Shown here piece by piece: positions 11,245-55,996 of a stretch of 64,000 nucleotides of DNA. Source of the stretch: a bacterium (GTDB lineage Bacteria > Electryoneota > AABM5-125-24 > Hatepunaeales > Hatepunaeaceae); NCBI GenBank assembly GCA_021734165.1, contig JAIPJL010000004.1, positions 951 through 64,950 on the forward strand. The letters are read 5' to 3'. The position numbers and the translations under genes were made by a program. Each line of letters opens with the position of its first letter. The stretch's first letter is position 1. The notes under the pieces were generated by a model. That model searched no databases, had not been told where the DNA came from, and saw nothing but the letters and a program-made list of their open reading frames with translations.

Positions 11245-13662
11245 ATGAAAAAACTAATGTTTGTTGTGTTGTTGCTTTTTCTGACTTGTTTAATCAGAAA
11301 CCAGTTAACTTATGCCAGAACCATTCGTGTCCCTGGCGACATAAGAGTCCTCCAAACTGCTGTTAATCGAGCATCCGAAGGCGATTCAATCATCGTCGAA
11401 CCCGGTGATTATCCACACATTACAATCCGCGAAAAGGATAACTTAGTTTTAGTAGGCGCTGGATTAGATGCAGAAGAAATGAGCATCATTCGTGGTGTTC
11501 CGGATTCTCACACTGAGGTTGCCCTTAATGCAATCCGCTGTAATAATCTTGAGATAAAGGGATTTGAGTTTACAGAAGGCTATACGGCAATATGGCTTCA
11601 AGCTTGTGATAATGTTTGGATACATGAAAACTACATACATGATTTACCTTCATGGTGGAGTTCCTCCATCAGTATTAGCAGCACGGATAACTTGTTGATT
11701 GAACGTAATATAATGCTCCGGAGTTGGCATTATGGACTATATGTTAACGGAAATTACCTCGGACCAACTTGTGATAATATTGTGATACGAAATAATGTCA
11801 TCGGATGGATGGTAAATAATGATGGTATATATCTTGAGGATGCTGACGGTGTATATATTTATAATAACGTCATCATTGAGAATGGAGATATTGGCATTTA
11901 CAATTACAGACAAGTAAATAACCTACGTGTAGAATATAATTGTCTAATCGATAATGAAAATGGCAATAGTCGCGGTTTGGATTTAAGTCGAACTAATTTG
12001 ATTGATGATCCTGAATTCGTCAATCCAAGAAGGGATGATTATCATTTGGGAAACAACTCCCCATGCATCGACGCAGGCGATCCGGATTCCCCACGTGATC
12101 CGGATGGTAGCCTCGCTGATATGGGTGTTTATCCACTTCCTGAAATAGAAGAAGAAGTACCCGAACCATCATATTTTGAATTCACAGAAACAGATGTGAG
12201 TCATAGGCTTACAATTAGAAGCGCCGAATTTGATAATGAAGAACTTGTTGATGGTGATGAAATCGGAGTATTCACACAAAACGGACTTTGTGCAGGAGCA
12301 GCTATCTGGGAAGGTGACGGAACACAAGCGCTGGCGTGGATGGATAACGCTGATACCGATGAAATTGATGGTTTTGTTGAAGGAGAGAGGATTTATGTCC
12401 ATATTTGGCGTAGCGAGGAAGATGAGGAGTATCGAGCTAAAAGAATATGGATTCAAGGCTCTAAAAACTTCAATCCGAGCACTTCATCTACTATAGAGAT
12501 AGAAGCATTCTCGAGTGTGGAATGCACTATTGAAATGCTGAGAAGATGGAATATAATTTCTGCAAATGTTGAGCCGTTTAACAGGAATATAGTTGAAATT
12601 TTTGAGCCTTTAACTGAGTTAGATAACAATCCGCTTATTTTAGTTAAAGACGGGTATGGAAATTTTTATATCCCCGAATGGGATCATTTCAATAACATGT
12701 CAGACTGGAGTTATCAGAATGCATACCAGACATATCTTACAAGGGAAATTGATTTAACAATTGAAGGTAACTATGTTGAACCAGATCATCCTATTGCGCT
12801 TTATAGAGGATTACAACTAATTTCATATCTTCCTTCATGGGAATTGGAGGTTAACGATGCATTTGAATCTGTTGTTAATACCTTATTCTTAGTTAAAGAT
12901 ATGAGTGGCGATTTCTTTATTCCAAGGTATAACTATAACGATATGGAACCTTTAGCTCCAGGACATGGATATTGGGTTTGGATGACTGCTGATGATATGC
13001 TTATTTATCCTGACGAGCAACAGCGAGAAGAGAACATAATGAATAATGATGGAATACCTCATACTGACGGATTTTCTCAACTCACAGACAATATGAGCGT
13101 TCTTATTACTGGCGATGATCTTCTTACGAGAGATAAAGTGATCGCTTTAAACATTTATAGCAAAATTGTTGGGGAAGGATTTGTCAATGCTGAAGGATAT
13201 TGTGGAATTGCGCTTTGGGGAAAGTCTGAATACGCCTCAAAGGAAATGGGTCTAAGCGAGAATGAAATACCACAATTCAAAGTTATCAGGGGCAAAGAAT
13301 ATATTGACGCATCTTTACGGATTATAGAAGGGAATACCCATTATAAGGATGACTCTTTTGTCTTAGGTGAACTCGTTCTCCCACTTGAAAACCCTGTCAG
13401 GAGTTTTTCATTAATGGAACCATATCCGAATCCTTTCAACAGTCGCTCAACCATATCGTTTAACCTTACAAAATCCGGCATGATTCAACTTAATCTGATT
13501 GACCTCAATGGAAAGCAGGTAAAAAGGATCATTAATAAGGAACTATCTTCAGGCTCTCACGTTTCTTGTATTAAAGCTGAAGGACTTCCTAGCGGTATTT
13601 ACATCTTGCAGCTTTCAGCAATTGAAGGAACTTCCACCAAGAAAATCGTTCTGACAAGGTAA
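11245..13662 (+). CDS. Secreted right-handed beta-helix protein with T9SS CTD
   Basis: AGGAG RBS places start at 11245 (MKKLM); signal peptide; TIRVPGD...GDSIIVEPG; DYHL...SPCIDAGDP; YPNPFN tail. Confidence 0.8.
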   Translation: MKKLMFVVLLLFLTCLIRNQLTYARTIRVPGDIRVLQTAVNRASEGDSIIVEPGDYPHITIREKDNLVLVGAGLDAEEMSIIRGVPDSHTEVALNAIRCNNLEIKGFEFTEGYTAIWLQACDNVWIHENYIHDLPSWWSSSISISSTDNLLIERNIMLRSWHYGLYVNGNYLGPTCDNIVIRNNVIGWMVNNDGIYLEDADGVYIYNNVIIENGDIGIYNYRQVNNLRVEYNCLIDNENGNSRGLDLSRTNLIDDPEFVNPRRDDYHLGNNSPCIDAGDPDSPRDPDGSLADMGVYPLPEIEEEVPEPSYFEFTETDVSHRLTIRSAEFDNEELVDGDEIGVFTQNGLCAGAAIWEGDGTQALAWMDNADTDEIDGFVEGERIYVHIWRSEEDEEYRAKRIWIQGSKNFNPSTSSTIEIEAFSSVECTIEMLRRWNIISANVEPFNRNIVEIFEPLTELDNNPLILVKDGYGNFYIPEWDHFNNMSDWSYQNAYQTYLTREIDLTIEGNYVEPDHPIALYRGLQLISYLPSWELEVNDAFESVVNTLFLVKDMSGDFFIPRYNYNDMEPLAPGHGYWVWMTADDMLIYPDEQQREENIMNNDGIPHTDGFSQLTDNMSVLITGDDLLTRDKVIALNIYSKIVGEGFVNAEGYCGIALWGKSEYASKEMGLSENEIPQFKVIRGKEYIDASLRIIEGNTHYKDDSFVLGELVLPLENPVRSFSLMEPYPNPFNSRSTISFNLTKSGMIQLNLIDLNGKQVKRIINKELSSGSHVSCIKAEGLPSGIYILQLSAIEGTSTKKIVLTR

Positions 13663-25312: not shown

Positions 25313-27309
25313 GTAATAAAACCACCAACAATACAACCTACTTACAAAACCTCATCGAGGGCATTAAACCTTACCGTAAAAAGTTAGCTCTTGGTTTCAT
25401 TGCTTCAGCGTTAATGAATGCTTTCGCAGTCATGAGTCCGATGTTGCTCAGATCAGGCGTTAATGCGTTGCAGGAAGGCGCTCCTGTCGGCTGGCTGTAC
25501 ACATTTTCTGGGTTGATTGTCCTGATTGCTGTCATCGGCGGTGTGTTCCGTTATCAGATGCGTATGATCATCATCGGAACATCGCGTTGGGCGGAGAGCG
25601 ATCTGCGCGAAAAGTACTTCGGACATCTGCTTGAGCTTGCTTCGTCATTCTTTGATCGCAATCTGACCGGTGATCTGATGGCGCGCGCTACTGACGATAT
25701 TGAGCGTATCCGTATGGTTTACGGACCGGTGTTGATGATGGTCATGGCTACCTCGCTGACGTTGATCTTTTCCGCAATCATGATGTTTATACTCGACGTC
25801 AAATTAGCAATACTGGTCATGTTTATGGCGCCATTAGTTGGCGCTGTTGTACTACTCGTTGCAAGCAAATTACATCGGGTAAACCTGTGTCAGCAGGAGG
25901 CTTATGGAAAACTCGAGTCAAATGTCCAAGAAAATCTCACCGGTATTCGCGTCGTAAAATCGTTTGTTCGAGAGGCTTACGAATCAAAGAAATTTACTGA
26001 AATCTGCCAGCTATATTTCAAACGCAGTATAGACGTTATAAAAATACAATCGATCTTCATGCCGGTCATAGGGCTGCTGATCGGGCTTGGAATTGCGCTG
26101 ATACTCTGGGTGGGTGGTAAAGACGTAGCAACCGGAGCTATTACGCTTGGAGATTTCATCGCTTTTACAAGTTACTTATCGCTTATGACTTGGCCCATGA
26201 TTTCCATAGGGTGGCTGACACATCTGTATCAGCGTGGATCGGCTTCCCATAGGAGATTGGAACAGATATTTGAGGTGAAGGAACAATTTGAGAAGGATAC
26301 CCCCCCCTTTGATTCCCCTCCAGAGCAGGGGGGGATGACTTCTGACTTTTATTCCAAGCCCGTAGGGCAGGAGGAGATTAATGGAAAACAAGGACTTGAG
26401 TGTCATGTGAGGACACATGACACCACAAGTCCATCAATAACATTCCGAAACATCCATTTCAGTTACAACGATGATTCACCTGAAGTTCTGAAAGGTATAA
26501 ATCTGGACATTCCTTCGGGCAGTAAACTGGCAATTGTTGGGAAAACGGGCTCAGGTAAAAGTACGCTACTTAGGCTATTATCCAGATTGTACGAGCCGCA
26601 AAGTGGTGAAATATTACTTAATGAGACCCCCCCTTTAATCACCCCCTACTCTGTAAGGGGGGAGGGGCAAGCTAATAATCCCTTACCAAGCGAGGAGGGA
26701 AAACAACGCTCATCATCCCCCCCTGCAGAGCAGGGAGAGATTAAAGGGGGGGGTATTTCATGGAAAAAGATTCCAATCCACCAACTCCGTCGTATGATCG
26801 GTTACGTTGAGCAGACTCCCTTCCTCTTCTCAACCTCAATCAGAGAAAACATAGCCTTCGGCGCAATGGAAGCTACAGACGAAGCGATTGCAACTGCTAC
26901 ACAAATAGCGAGTTTCGACAGAGATATTGCGGACTTACCTGACAAGTATGAAACCATTATCGGTGAACGTGGCGTCACGCTTTCCGGTGGTCAGCAGCAG
27001 CGGTTAACAATAGCAAGAGCCTTACTGACCGATACACAGATATTACTGCTTGACGATGCACTCAGCGCTGTCGATACAGGCACCGAAACCGGAATCATTA
27101 ATAATCTGACCACACAGACCAGTCAAAAAACGGTTCTTATCGTAACCCACAGACTTGCCGCGGCTGAAAGAGCCGACAAAATCGCAGTTCTCGATAATGG
27201 AATTATCGCTGAATATGGCAATCATCAGGAATTAATGGATTTAAACGGCTTATATGCTGCGATGTATCGTCGTCAAAGGTTGTCGGATGAACTCGGAGCA
27301 ATATCATGA
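25309..27309 (+). CDS. Heterodimeric ABC exporter subunit 1 (TMD+NBD) with two in-frame repeat insertions
   Basis: Six-TM domain, GKTGSGKS, LSGGQQQR, degenerate Walker B LLLDD; TTG 25309 follows GAGGA and overlaps upstream TGA. Confidence 0.92.
   Translation: MSNKTTNNTTYLQNLIEGIKPYRKKLALGFIASALMNAFAVMSPMLLRSGVNALQEGAPVGWLYTFSGLIVLIAVIGGVFRYQMRMIIIGTSRWAESDLREKYFGHLLELASSFFDRNLTGDLMARATDDIERIRMVYGPVLMMVMATSLTLIFSAIMMFILDVKLAILVMFMAPLVGAVVLLVASKLHRVNLCQQEAYGKLESNVQENLTGIRVVKSFVREAYESKKFTEICQLYFKRSIDVIKIQSIFMPVIGLLIGLGIALILWVGGKDVATGAITLGDFIAFTSYLSLMTWPMISIGWLTHLYQRGSASHRRLEQIFEVKEQFEKDTPPFDSPPEQGGMTSDFYSKPVGQEEINGKQGLECHVRTHDTTSPSITFRNIHFSYNDDSPEVLKGINLDIPSGSKLAIVGKTGSGKSTLLRLLSRLYEPQSGEILLNETPPLITPYSVRGEGQANNPLPSEEGKQRSSSPPAEQGEIKGGGISWKKIPIHQLRRMIGYVEQTPFLFSTSIRENIAFGAMEATDEAIATATQIASFDRDIADLPDKYETIIGERGVTLSGGQQQRLTIARALLTDTQILLLDDALSAVDTGTETGIINNLTTQTSQKTVLIVTHRLAAAERADKIAVLDNGIIAEYGNHQELMDLNGLYAAMYRRQRLSDELGAIS
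26299..26423. repeat. Composite palindromic elements in frame in the TMD-NBD linker
   Basis: A-C8-TTTGATTCCCCTCCAGAGCA-G7 (26299-26334) and GTGTCATGTG-agga-CACATGACAC (26400-26423). Confidence 0.75.
26626..26754. mobile_element. 129-bp MITE/REPIN-like element inserted in frame in the NBD
   Basis: Terminal inverted repeats ACCCCCCCTTTAATC / GATTAAAGGGGGGGGT; removal restores the 12-residue spacing seen in the partner NBD. Confidence 0.85.
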
Positions 27310-51981: not shown

Positions 51982-52170
51982 TAGTAATGCAGGAATGCAA
52001 TACACAAAGGATTGACATTGACATAGAGAATATTTAAAATCCATTTAATCGTTAAAATGAGATATATATCAAGTGATAAGCATTGTTATATATGTCGATT
52101 AATCCTTATATTTAGTGGTATAATTGTTGCACAAGTCATTTTTGGTTATTCAAAGAAACAAAGGAATAAT

Positions 52171-53472
52171 ATGAACGATCTGAGTGAATTAATCTTCGAT
52201 AGTATCAGTGATGGTGTATTTACAGTAAATGATAAATGCATCATCACTTCTTTCAACAAAGCAGCCGAAGATATCACTGGATTCAAAGCTAAAGAAGCGC
52301 TTGGAAAACATTGTTTCGATGTTTTCCGTACAGAAGTCTGTCATAAAAGATGTGCACTTAAAGATACTCTTAAGAATCATGATCCTGTTGATAACGCTAG
52401 GGTGACTATTATAACCAGCGAGGGATGTGAGTTGCCAATTAGCGTGACCACAACTTTATTAAGGGATAAAGCGGAACGTATAATTGGCGCTGTTGAGTTT
52501 TTTAGGGACATTTCTGAGATCGAGCATCTTCATAAGCGTCTGGATGAACGGCGCATTTTAAGTGATATAGTCAGTGTAAACACTGAGATGCAGAAGCTGG
52601 TTCAACTGTTGCCCGATGTAGCTGAAGCTGAGTGCAATGTATTAATAGAGGGTCCCAGTGGTTCCGGAAAGGAATTAGTAGCGCAGGTTATTCATAATCT
52701 CAGTCCTCGCAAGTATGGACCTTACATAAAAATAAACTGTGCTGCCCTGCCGGCGACACTTCTCGAATCGGAGCTATTTGGTTATTCGAAGGGAGCATTT
52801 ACAGACGCTAAACGCGATAAACCTGGGCAGTTTTGCCTCGCCAACGGTGGAACCTTGCTGCTTGATGAAATCAGTGAAATGGATATATCGCTCCAGGTTA
52901 AGTTGCTAAGGGTACTGAATAATGGTGAGTATCAACCGCTTGGATCAACTAATACTATGCGGACTGACGCCCGGATTATTGCCGCAACAAATGCAAATCT
53001 TCAGAAGTGTATTGAAGAAGGACGCTTCAGAGAAGATCTTTATTATAGAATCAATGTTGTTAGTCTTCAGATTCCACCCCTTAACGAGCGGCCTGAAGAT
53101 ATCCCGCTTCTCGTTAATTACTTCATGCAAAAATTCCGTAAAAAAACAAGAAAATCTATCAATAAAGTTGCTCCGGAAACTCTTGCAGTATTAAGAAAAT
53201 TCCTTTTTCCAGGTAATGTCAGGGAATTAGAGAATGCTATCGAACATGCATTTGTCATGTGTCATGGCAGTGAGATCAGATCGGAGCACCTTCCGTTGAA
53301 TATCGTAAATAATGGTTATGCCACTAATGGTGTAACATCAGTTAAAACACATGAGAAGCAGGTTATTACTGAAGCCTTACAACGCAACCATGGCAATCGC
53401 AATCGCACTGCTGAAGAACTCGGTTTGCACAGATCAACTCTTTGGAGAAAAATCAGGATGTATAGATTATAG
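52171..53472 (+). CDS. PAS-domain sigma-54 enhancer-binding protein (OrpR-like)
   Basis: PAS with three Cys (GKHC...EVCHKRC), GPSGSGKE, ESELFGY.KGAFTDA, LDEI, FPGNVREL, Fis-type HTH; AGGA RBS before ATG 52171. Confidence 0.9.
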   Translation: MNDLSELIFDSISDGVFTVNDKCIITSFNKAAEDITGFKAKEALGKHCFDVFRTEVCHKRCALKDTLKNHDPVDNARVTIITSEGCELPISVTTTLLRDKAERIIGAVEFFRDISEIEHLHKRLDERRILSDIVSVNTEMQKLVQLLPDVAEAECNVLIEGPSGSGKELVAQVIHNLSPRKYGPYIKINCAALPATLLESELFGYSKGAFTDAKRDKPGQFCLANGGTLLLDEISEMDISLQVKLLRVLNNGEYQPLGSTNTMRTDARIIAATNANLQKCIEEGRFREDLYYRINVVSLQIPPLNERPEDIPLLVNYFMQKFRKKTRKSINKVAPETLAVLRKFLFPGNVRELENAIEHAFVMCHGSEIRSEHLPLNIVNNGYATNGVTSVKTHEKQVITEALQRNHGNRNRTAEELGLHRSTLWRKIRMYRL

Positions 53473-53590
53473 AAACTTCGAGGTGAAAAAGATCTCGTCC
53501 TCGAAGCTGCCAAAGCATTTTAACCTGCCATTTCTGGCATAAAACAGCTAAATTACTGCAATAGTGATTTAGCTGTTATTATTTGTAACT

Positions 53591-53610
53591 TATATATATA
53601 TATATATATA
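53591..53610. repeat. (TA)10 microsatellite abutting a -35 box
   Basis: Ten perfect TA units directly before TTGACT. Confidence 0.95.
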
Positions 53611-53639
53611 TTGACTTTTGCCGAGTGGTTTATTATATT
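53611..53639 (+). promoter_or_regulatory. Sigma-70 promoter of the lipoprotein gene
   Basis: TTGACT-17 bp-TATATT. Confidence 0.7.
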
Positions 53640-53710: not shown

Positions 53711-55996
53711 ATGGTCAAGATAAGGATTTTTGCATCATTTACAGTCATATTAATTCTAACCCTTCTGTTTGTCAACTGCACAGAAGACAGTCCAACAACA
53801 CCATCCATCGACTTTGTAGCGCCTTACGTCGAATGGGTGAACCTTTCAAACAGCGCGGAACTCTCCGGAACGGTTGAGTTCTCCTTCAGCGTCTATGATG
53901 AAAACGGCATTGATAGCGTTAAGGTCTATATCAATGGTCTGTTAGATCAGGGGTGGGGCAGACATTCCTGTCTGACATCCTGCTCCGACACCACAATCGC
54001 CTTCGCATGGAACACCCTTGACTACGAGGACGGCGTTTACATCCTCGAAGCGAGAGCCTGGGACACATCAGGCAACCTCGGTGTAAGTCCATTTTTAATG
54101 GTAAACGTCAGAAACAACGAAGAGCCTCCTCCCGATGATCACTTACCACCAATGATAATATGGGTGTCACCTGAAGCAAGCTCTGAGGTTTCAGGTGATG
54201 TAACACTGAGATTCAATGCAATGGACAACATTGGAATAGACAGCCTCAAACTATATGTGAATGGAGCCTGTCCTGAAGGATTTACACTTCAAGGACAGCA
54301 GGAAATAGAATACAGTATAGTCTGGAATACGGAAGATTTCGGCGACGGTGTTTACAGTTTAGAAGCGAGAGCCTGGGACACATCCGGCAACATGGGCACA
54401 AGTCCATCACTGATGGTGAATGTTAAAAACGATACAGATCCACCACCGGAAGACAGACTTGCTCCATATGTCCATTGGATAGCGCCTGAAGGAGGCAGTA
54501 CTCTCAAGGATACAGTCAGCTTACAGGTTGGTTTATATGATGAAAACGGCGTCGACAGCCTTAAGGTCTATATTAATGGCACACTCATAATGGGGAGCGC
54601 CGGCGCCTCCCCCCCTGCTGCTCAGTCTGTCCGAAAATGCACGAAATCTCTAACAATGTCATTCCCGCGTAGGCGGGAATCTAATAATAACAATGAGTTA
54701 ACAGATTCCTGCCTTCGCAGGAATGACACTCTTTTTAGTTCCCGTACTGGCTTGTTAATAGGAGGGAATAAAGGGGAAATTAAAGGGGGATTTAATCTAA
54801 CCACATCAACCGACACCACCATCACCATCGCATGGAACACATTTGACTATGAAGACGGAGTTTATATCCTCGAAGCGAGAGCCTGGGATACATCCGGCAA
54901 CCTTGGCACGAGTCCATCTTTAATGGTGAATGTCAAGAATGACGAAGAGCCTCCCCCCGAAGACCGCACGCCTCCGGTGGTTAGTTGGGTGTCGCCAGAA
55001 CCTGGAACTGAAGTATCAGGAGATGTAGAATTGTGTTTTCAGGTGATGGATGATATAGGGCTTGATTCGGTCCAGGTTTACTTGAATAGTCAAAAATGGC
55101 AAAACTTTAAATATATAGAAAATTATTTTGATACAAAAGTGATCTGGATCACATCTGACTACTCAGATAATAATTATATTGTAGAAGTGAGAGCTTGGGA
55201 TACATCCGGAAACATCGGTTCAAGTGAAGTAATTTGTTTCACTGTAAGGAATAATGTGCCGCGTGTTATCTGGGTGCCGGATGACTATGAAACAATTCAG
55301 GGCGCTATCAATGCCAGTGAAGATGGGGATACGGTGAGGGTCAGAGCGGGTATCTACTATGGAATGGTCTATTTCTGGGATAAAGATATATGGTTGGAAA
55401 GCGAAATGGGACCTGAATTAACTATAATTGATGCTGATAATGATAATTTCGGTGTACGTATTGACAACGGGCAGGATACAACAACAACAATAAGAGGTTT
55501 TATGATAATGAATGCTGAATTTAGAGGTATTGATTTAGTTTATAATTCAAGTATTCGAATGTTTAATAATATTGTTATTACACCAGAAGGTAAAAATGTG
55601 TGGTCAGATTTTAACAGATCAATTTATTTAAATAATATTTTTACAAACTCAGGAAGTGGTAATTTCGAGATATGGGTTTCTTATGGTTATATGTATAATA
55701 ATTTAGTTATCCACAGTGGTAGATATGCTATGTTTAATCGCAGTTACTTTGATAATCCCCTTTTTATTGATTATAACCTGTTTTGGGATTATCAAACGCT
55801 GCTAACAAATGAACCTTCGTTTAGGTTCGAGGAGAATAATATCTTTGATCTTGATCCACAATTCAGAGATGATAGTTTTATTTTAAGAAATAATTCCCCA
55901 TGTATTGATACGGGGCATCCGGATTTATTCGATTTAGATGGATCACGCTCTGATATGGGCGTTTATGGTGGGCAATATGCATACCCACCACCATAA
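53711..55996 (+). CDS. Lipoprotein with four Ig-like repeats and a C-terminal beta-helix module; carries in-frame repeat insertions
   Basis: GGAGG RBS; lipobox LFVNC; four W(N/I)T...(LEA/VEV)RAWDTSGN units; VPDDYETIQGAI...SPCIDTG module. Confidence 0.85.
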   Translation: MVKIRIFASFTVILILTLLFVNCTEDSPTTPSIDFVAPYVEWVNLSNSAELSGTVEFSFSVYDENGIDSVKVYINGLLDQGWGRHSCLTSCSDTTIAFAWNTLDYEDGVYILEARAWDTSGNLGVSPFLMVNVRNNEEPPPDDHLPPMIIWVSPEASSEVSGDVTLRFNAMDNIGIDSLKLYVNGACPEGFTLQGQQEIEYSIVWNTEDFGDGVYSLEARAWDTSGNMGTSPSLMVNVKNDTDPPPEDRLAPYVHWIAPEGGSTLKDTVSLQVGLYDENGVDSLKVYINGTLIMGSAGASPPAAQSVRKCTKSLTMSFPRRRESNNNNELTDSCLRRNDTLFSSRTGLLIGGNKGEIKGGFNLTTSTDTTITIAWNTFDYEDGVYILEARAWDTSGNLGTSPSLMVNVKNDEEPPPEDRTPPVVSWVSPEPGTEVSGDVELCFQVMDDIGLDSVQVYLNSQKWQNFKYIENYFDTKVIWITSDYSDNNYIVEVRAWDTSGNIGSSEVICFTVRNNVPRVIWVPDDYETIQGAINASEDGDTVRVRAGIYYGMVYFWDKDIWLESEMGPELTIIDADNDNFGVRIDNGQDTTTTIRGFMIMNAEFRGIDLVYNSSIRMFNNIVITPEGKNVWSDFNRSIYLNNIFTNSGSGNFEIWVSYGYMYNNLVIHSGRYAMFNRSYFDNPLFIDYNLFWDYQTLLTNEPSFRFEENNIFDLDPQFRDDSFILRNNSPCIDTGHPDLFDLDGSRSDMGVYGGQYAYPPP
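53953..53976. repeat. REP unit in frame in Ig repeat 1
   Basis: GTGGGGCAGACA-ttcc-TGTCTGAC, 18/24 identical to intergenic 16614-16637 with compensatory stem changes. Confidence 0.75.
54591..54793. mobile_element. Nested repeat complex in frame in Ig repeat 3, including a 129-bp MITE-like unit (54624-54752)
   Basis: ATTCCC-N8-GGGAAT (54661-54680) with inverted partner 54703-54727; imperfect ends AGTCTGTCCGAAAA / TTCCCGTACTGGCT (9/14); flanked by two halves of a C/G-tract element. Confidence 0.8.

Follow-up and report, generated by a model that had tools for sequence, protein, structure and literature searches.

How does one loop of a repeated immunoglobulin-like (Ig) domain come to hold several palindromic DNA elements, one of them lodged inside another, while the gene around them stays open? 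The question is raised by a lipoprotein gene at positions 53711-55996 (+ strand) of the window, a stretch of 64,000 nucleotides (positions 951 to 64,950) of contig JAIPJL010000004.1, which belongs to a metagenome-assembled genome (MAG; GCA_021734165.1) of 3.4 Mb, 42% GC and 169 contigs that is 86% complete. An earlier note on this DNA had proposed that the same loop was colonised independently by different elements in two of the four Ig repeats. Our analysis indicates that the turn of a β-hairpin in the Ig fold has probably been layered with non-autonomous palindromic elements that are translated as a disordered loop: a short hairpin, here family B, in repeat 1, and a second type of hairpin unit, family C, in repeat 3, the latter split by a 127-nt nested element resembling a miniature inverted-repeat transposable element (MITE), here MITE-A.

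The gene encodes 761 amino acids, comprising a signal peptide that ends in ...LLFVNC, Cys23, four Big_7 Ig repeats and a C-terminal right-handed β-helix. Its 2283-nt open reading frame (ORF) is intact, and the frame is free of stops from 53699 or 53711 to 55996, repeat DNA included. Cys23 is invariant among 37 homologues, which fits a lipoprotein; from the lipobox alone we infer that the protein is exposed on the cell surface. With membership of Big_7 (PF17957) defined as a profile match above the Pfam gathering score, the protein reaches 125 bits over four stretches against a cut-off of 24.1, and the C-terminal domain of the homologues belongs to the Beta_helix/NosD families (PF13229/PF05048). 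The names of the homologues point to Calditrichota-like bacteria, and a scan of genome contigs returned a single distant locus and no close orthologue.

The four Ig repeats are in register, with W.T...EARAWDTSGN blocks conserved at 54008, 54323, 54833 and 55145. Repeat 1 occupies 53825-54109 (residues ~39-133, placed by the AlphaFold (AF2) strands E39-E133 and the repeat register), repeat 2 occupies 54152-54424, repeat 3 occupies 54467-54934 and repeat 4 occupies 54977-55246, followed by the β-helix domain at 55250-55993, all on the + strand. Between Y(I/V/L)N(G/S) and W.T, the loop measures 23, 19, 84 and 18 residues in repeats 1, 2, 3 and 4, respectively, bearing out the earlier observation of a long loop in repeat 3 and short ones in repeats 2 and 4; that of repeat 3 exceeds its counterparts by about 65 residues.

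An AF2 model built with the 37-sequence homologue alignment has a mean pLDDT (predicted local distance difference test) of 81 for the lipoprotein, with values of 80-90 for all four β-sandwich Ig domains and of 90-98 for the β-helix. Only four stretches fall below 50: residues 22-31, the lipoprotein linker; 243-246, a short inter-repeat linker; 83-90, the family-B peptide; and 296-367, the repeat-3 insert, at about 30. Taken together, the insert stretches score about 30-47. In repeat 4, the position equivalent to the insert site falls in the turn that joins strands 461-467 and 472-480.

The family-B element lies in repeat 1 between KVYING and DTT, where a repetitive extragenic palindrome (REP) had been noticed before. 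It is the 25-nt hairpin GGTGGGGCAGACATTCCTGTCTGACA (53952-53976, +), translated as WGRHSCLT. Other genomic copies match it at 100% over 21-23 nt and at 89% over 37 nt, and a strict search for CAGACA-N4-TGTCTG returned 17 genomic sites with a common GGTGGGG leader, most of them in short open frames but a small number within very long ORFs. Its fold is weak when taken alone (6-bp stem, z -1.6), and family B counts as a repeat element by its copy number, not by its fold. Family-B hairpins are also present at C23:15053-16150, in a gene for a 4371-aa protein with a repeated Ig-like domain; they supply the residues VGQTFLS at a constant place in that domain, and a third repeat has GGAPIFLS there.

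The insert of repeat 3 begins with a GGGGAG-N9-CTCCCC palindrome (54592-54612, +; GGGAGCGCC at 54593), of which the genome holds no second copy and which is collinear with a paralogue on contig C121, with 43/58 identity through this stretch. There follows the left arm of the outer, family-C hairpin, CCCCCCCTGCTGCT (54607-54622, +), its C-run proper at 54607-54614. The right part, GGAGGG-AATAAA-GGGGAA-ATTAAA-GGGGGATTTAATCT, lies at 54750-54796 (+), with its G-blocks at 54762-54790, and is translated as GGNKGEIKGGFNL. MITE-A stands between the two, flanked by CCTCCCCCCCTGCTGCT and GCTTGTTAATAGGAGGGAATAAAGGGGAAATTAAAGGGGGATTTAATCT, which are the two halves of one family-C unit with the canonical form CCCCCC-N9-GGGGGG-AATTAAA-GGGGGG. 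At least 46 units of this family are found in the genome; 15 of 46 fall within open frames of 250 aa or more, compared with a baseline of 79% for random positions, so that family C, like REPs, is under-represented in coding DNA, yet repeatedly tolerated there.

The order of arrival can be read from the relatives. In the homologous loop of C121, the family-C units are contiguous, CCTCCCCACCTGCCACAGCAGGGGGGGATAAAGGGGGGG and ...CTCCCCCTTTTCTAAAGGGGGAATCGAAGTGGGATTTTATCT, and the junctions are collinear with those of the window (left 43/58, right 59/72). The right junction is also common to the homologue P0006, from contig L016 of a different JGI metagenome (61/72), whose protein is 56% identical to the lipoprotein over the aligned part. 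Because the outer unit is intact, contiguous and collinear in both C121 and L016, it is old, and MITE-A is a later arrival in its loop. Homologues of only 45-58% protein identity have the junctions of the B and C layers in common with this gene, so both layers are old and only the 127-nt element looks recent. The proposal of independent colonisation is therefore upheld as far as different families occupy repeats 1 and 3, one of them nested, but not as recent arrivals of families B and C.

Further translated copies of such units were seen outside the lipoprotein gene. In the window, a 686-aa ABC ORF contains an in-frame 129-bp inverted family-C doublet (26626-26754), which reads ...TPPLITPYSVRGEG...PPAEQGEIKGG and has the GEIKGG peptide in common with the lipoprotein, as well as a second, single unit at 26300-26334 (TPPFDSPPEQGG). 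On L016 (6622-6860; Ga0395806_0002630), four CCCCCCCC-GCTCTTCA-GGGGG hairpins stand exactly 72 bp apart within an MMPL-family gene of a related organism, apparently a further instance of hairpin repeats that are read as protein.

MITE-A itself spans 54623-54749 (+), within 1-3 nt of the limits given earlier for a 129-bp splitting unit. An nhmmer search with 54624-54752 as the query recovered five full-length copies (window, C26, C69, C9 and C10) and about 30 copies of a 72-95-nt core. When the copies are aligned with their flanks, similarity extends from CAG(T/C)CTGT to ...CCC...CTG, and the ends form imperfect terminal inverted repeats, with CAGTCTGTRCGGGAA at the 5' end pairing with TTCCCGYAC(AG)ACTG at the 3' end. 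In the window copy, about 4 nt are missing from the right end, and its total length is 2-4 nt below that of the other copies. Direct repeats, short at 3 nt, flank four copies (GCT on both sides in the window; TTA, ATC and AAA elsewhere). As DNA, the element folds into a long hairpin (-23.4 kcal/mol, z -5.7), and its core consists of two inverted hairpins, ATTCCCGC-GTAG-GCGGGAAT and ATTCCTGC-CTTC-GCAGGAAT; Rfam gave sub-threshold matches to miRNA-like hairpins only and no known RNA family. The empty site would read ...CCCCCCCTGCTGCT joined to TGTTAATAGG.... The C10 copy has the same left flank, CCCCCCCTACTACT|CAG, which hints at a target preference of MITE-A for the family-C hairpin loop or, alternatively, at a duplicated composite. 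With 17 strict sites for family B, 46 units for family C, and five full and about 30 core copies for MITE-A, all three families have many other copies in the genome, far beyond chance.

MITE-A has two stop-free frames. Of the five full copies, three are located within long ORFs, in the same +0 frame and orientation. Their hosts are the lipoprotein of the window, a 393-aa ThiI-like PP-loop enzyme (C26) and a 3144-aa Ig/cadherin-repeat surface protein (C123), in which the insert is located after a Big_9 domain; all three read SFPRRRES.NNN.L.DSCLRRNDT. On C26, the copy sits in frame at 11689-11821 (L020/L032) in a single-copy ThiI-like PP-loop/NFACT-R_2 gene. In ten relatives, the open frame of the orthologue measures 348-373 aa, as against 393 aa here, so that the insert of about 40 aa is specific to this genome. 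Every genus of the family has the 72-nt double hairpin, with between 4 and more than 80 copies in a genome, and other families of the phylum have it too; the 130-nt MITE-A form is almost restricted to this genome. One relative (G012) carries at least 40 near-identical 72-nt double hairpins, many no more than 100 nt from contig ends, as if a REPIN-like population had been amplified recently and had broken up the assembly.

The two hairpins of MITE-A resemble elements known from Neisseria, where dRS3 is ATTCCC[N8]GGGAAT and the longer, 28-nt NTS is CGTCATTCCCGCGMAVGCGGGAATCYRG, with GTC before the palindrome and C after it critical for cleavage and binding (PMC11893778). The resemblance to dRS3 had been pointed out before and proved correct: ATTCCCGCGTAGGCGGGAAT at 54661-54680 fits ATTCCC-N8-GGGAAT exactly, with ATTCCTGCCTTCGCAGGAAT as its inverted partner at 54705-54724, and all motifs that had been quoted from the sequence were found in place. 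Extended to NTS length, the resemblance is tighter than had been claimed: the forward hairpin TGTCATTCCCGCGTAGGCGGGAATCTAA (54655-54682, +) agrees with the NTS at 25/28 positions and the inverted one (54701-54728, -), a ATTCCTGC/GCAGGAAT stem variant, at 24/28; two of the differences in the latter are a compensatory pair (the T/A stem variant). Both hairpins retain GTC before the palindrome and C after it. The degenerate SRM pattern, which has 46 matches in the genome versus about 10 in shuffles, misses each of them by one position.

Candidate enzymes for such hairpins are encoded in the genome. A 95-aa single-domain GIY-YIG gene on C113 (3530-4066, L024; Pfam 58 bits) has an array of copies of the CATCATTCCAGCGAAAGCTGGAATCCAG hairpin upstream and an inverted copy downstream. 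The hairpins are of a third stem variant, ATTCCAGC-GAAA-GCTGGAAT, and short repeats of HHSNA type also lie upstream. This locus has the NTS-ssn-NTS layout (PMC11893778), and its product is a predicted Ssn-like nuclease. There are, in addition, two genes resembling REP-associated tyrosine transposases (RAYTs), on C127 and C26, one of them a clear RAYT (NF047646, 89 bits); that on C26 (12733-12891) lies about 1 kb from the MITE-A copy of this contig. Arrays of NTS-like hairpins (ATTCCTGC-GAAA-GCAGGAAT) were also noted at C49:5092-5243 and C119:38446-38988, the hairpins standing about 75 nt or 184 nt apart. A CRISPR array was considered for those with the 75-nt spacing; they are of the same NTS-like type, and a BIME-like cluster may be another reading.

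How far the loop has varied is apparent from the homologues. Among the 37, 22 of the 36 scored loops have 16-20 aa, and the longer ones read GRHSCLP, one to three times, or PPCPPFKKGG...SPFCKGGIKGGF. Family B is present in one to three copies in the loops of P0015, P0014 and P0022, the hairpin DNA being confirmed for P0022, and family C in two to three copies in those of P0004, P0006 and C121, while the relatives G012 and G003 have about four residues where the repeat-3 insert stands. In repeats 1 and 3 alike, the B and C layers begin past the fourth residue after NG. The C121 paralogue (39-1770; 577 aa) has two Ig repeats and a 106-aa loop of at least three hairpin units, and it is a mosaic: its upstream region and the first half of repeat 1 share 88% nucleotide identity with the window gene, followed by a repeat-3-like loop and second half (88-94%), with identity at about 60% some 180 nt on. 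The breakpoint coincides with a block of 44 nt that is conserved in repeats 1 and 3 and lies immediately 5' of the loop, so that ordinary unequal crossing-over suffices and the elements are not needed to explain it. C163 was considered as a third paralogue and rejected, as it carries the flank upstream of the C121 gene (C163:1-138) and has an overlap of about 138 nt with the C121 contig.

Upstream of the gene, a (TA)10 tract (53591-53610, no strand assigned) abuts the 5' side of a -35-like TTGACT. The best sigma-70-like match, TTGACT-17-TATATT at 53611-53639, lies directly 3' of the tract. Tracts of (TA)7 or longer number just two in the whole genome, and upstream of the C121 paralogue the TTGACTTTTGC -35 box is present and the TA tract absent. 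A terminator-like hairpin with a 16-bp stem (53543-53577) follows a sigma-54-type regulator gene (52057-53472), upstream of the TA tract.

Together, these observations suggest a sequence of events. The repeat-1 loop has received a family-B hairpin and the repeat-3 loop a family-C unit, and MITE-A later entered the loop of the family-C unit, probably with a 3-nt duplication. The elements may move by a route that recognises single-strand hairpins or by one driven by a transposase, and insertions would survive only where the open frame of the element and a tolerant loop spare the function of the protein, a logic akin to that of the Rickettsia palindromic elements (RPEs). Resident hairpins may then draw more insertions and tandem duplication, giving a hotspot loop of variable length. 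The insertion sink could equally reflect DNA-level targeting of resident hairpins or structural tolerance of the loop.

Several points weigh against this account. MITE-A plus the GCT repeat adds 130 nt net, a length that three does not divide; the duplication may in truth be CTG (net 129), or else a 1-nt change or small deletion inside the element restored the frame. A longer autonomous element with MITE-A ends was looked for in the genome, which is an only 86%-complete MAG in 169 contigs, and was not found. The RAYTs were tried as the cognate enzymes of MITE-A and set aside, as the hairpins that flank them, CGTCAGGTC... on C127 and GTGTCAGGCG... on C26, are other REPs. Finally, the family-B copies on C23 stand at regular domain positions without added length, so some coding copies are not simple insertions.

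Other explanations of the locus were weighed against layered insertion. The loop might be a site of programmed diversification, at which the Ssn-like GIY-YIG nuclease or a RAYT acts on the hairpins to generate strain variation in surface lipoproteins. The copy number of families B and C at the loop does vary from 1 to 3 among homologues, MITE-A occupies the same position of the family-C left arm in the window and in C10, the genome has both a GIY-YIG gene flanked by NTS-like hairpins and a bona fide RAYT, C121 is a repeat-1/repeat-3 mosaic, and a (TA)10 tract adjoins the promoter. Yet the breakpoint of C121 is explained equally well by the conserved 44-nt block, the coincidence with C10 could be a duplicated composite, and the occurrence of the elements in cytoplasmic enzymes as well (ThiI-like, ABC ATPase) speaks for general selfish spread; we regard programmed diversification as unlikely. 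It is still more doubtful that the hairpin-derived peptides W[GD]RHSCL[ST] and SPFxKGGIKGGF have become functional, for example as a ligand- or metal-binding loop under protein selection. Frame and peptide are kept across homologues with 45-58% overall identity, and the DNA of the right junction (61/72) is more conserved than that divergence predicts, but such conservation could reflect constraint on the hairpin or gene conversion from other copies. The low pLDDT of these stretches and the presence of the same peptides in unrelated proteins, by way of the same DNA repeats, also argue against a function, which would in addition leave the recent MITE-A layer unexplained.

An assembly artefact, in which repeats were mis-joined, or a decaying pseudogene could also account for the structure. 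The genome is a MAG of 169 contigs; in relatives, contigs end at these repeats, and the paralogue is likewise cut at its conserved 5' end, where C163 and C121 overlap. However, the same Ig domain continues in frame on both flanks of the insert, the ORF is intact with the lipobox cysteine conserved and the β-helix confidently folded, and the same architecture occurs independently in C121 and in the JGI contigs, making an artefact or pseudogene very improbable. Layered insertion into a tolerant turn is, in our judgement, the probable explanation.

Nested arrangements of this kind have a precedent in IS1397/ISKpn1-type systems, in which a mobile element enters the loop of a resident REP or bacterial interspersed mosaic element (BIME) hairpin. 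Here, by contrast, the invader is small and non-autonomous, and the whole stack lies inside coding sequence. A close likeness is that to the RPEs, which are found in frame in protein-coding genes (PMC10969869). As there, we find dispersed, non-autonomous palindromic repeats of the 100-150 bp range (~130-150 bp for the closest comparison) that have an open frame, are present in many copies in the genome, and add the same peptide in frame to unrelated ORFs while the protein is spared. The RPEs belong to an obligate intracellular α-proteobacterium and the present elements to a free-living Calditrichota-like MAG, and the likeness is not based on sequence homology. Moreover, several short families (25-40 nt hairpins) are found here beside the 127-nt element, and the elements are stacked in one Ig loop, one of them nested; a literature search on the placement of RPEs in loops returned nothing useful. 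By analogy, we would describe the locus as RPE-like in-frame insertion in a new lineage, with a recurrent hotspot in an Ig loop, in the sense that it appears to work like an RPE, not that it is a member of that group.

The other two comparisons are partial. With the Neisseria dRS3/NTS-Ssn system, MITE-A shares an exact dRS3 in its left hairpin, and the genome shares a small GIY-YIG gene with hairpins of this type on both sides; on the other hand, the SRM pattern fails at one position per hairpin, the hairpins of the ssn-like gene are of another stem variant, and no link to natural transformation is known for this organism. The hairpins also form inverted doublets here, within a longer, translated element, whereas PMC11893778 is silent on coding copies. 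With REPINs (PMC3337134; 10.1101/2022.05.22.493013), the element shares two inverted hairpins about 20 nt apart and a copy number in the dozens for each genome; the doublet is retained in every genus of the family, and a RAYT is present in the genome. In the REPIN-RAYT system, however, the RAYT is flanked by the same REP, which is not so here, and REPINs are by definition mostly extragenic, while the 127-nt form resembles a classical MITE in its additional inverted ends and its 3-nt direct repeats.

These findings suggest that the in-frame spread of palindromic repeats, best known in Rickettsia, also occurs in a free-living, uncultured lineage of the FCB group, and with several families at once. 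The hairpins of dRS3/NTS type, which were recently tied to the Ssn nuclease, are now linked to translated insertions, and the locus offers a clean natural example of which turn of an Ig domain can accommodate an extra 8 to 100 residues. For annotation, SFPRRRES, DSCLRRND, GRHSCLP and KGGIKGG in proteins of MAGs should be taken as marks of repeat DNA, not as protein motifs. There is also a slim chance that the loop is a standing DNA-level hotspot, at which hairpins would recruit single-strand enzymes and insertion, duplication and exchange between paralogues would reshape an exposed loop. If true, such a hotspot would amount to repeat-driven diversification of surface proteins, distinct from diversity-generating retroelements (DGRs), slipped-strand simple sequence repeats (SSRs) and cassette inversion.

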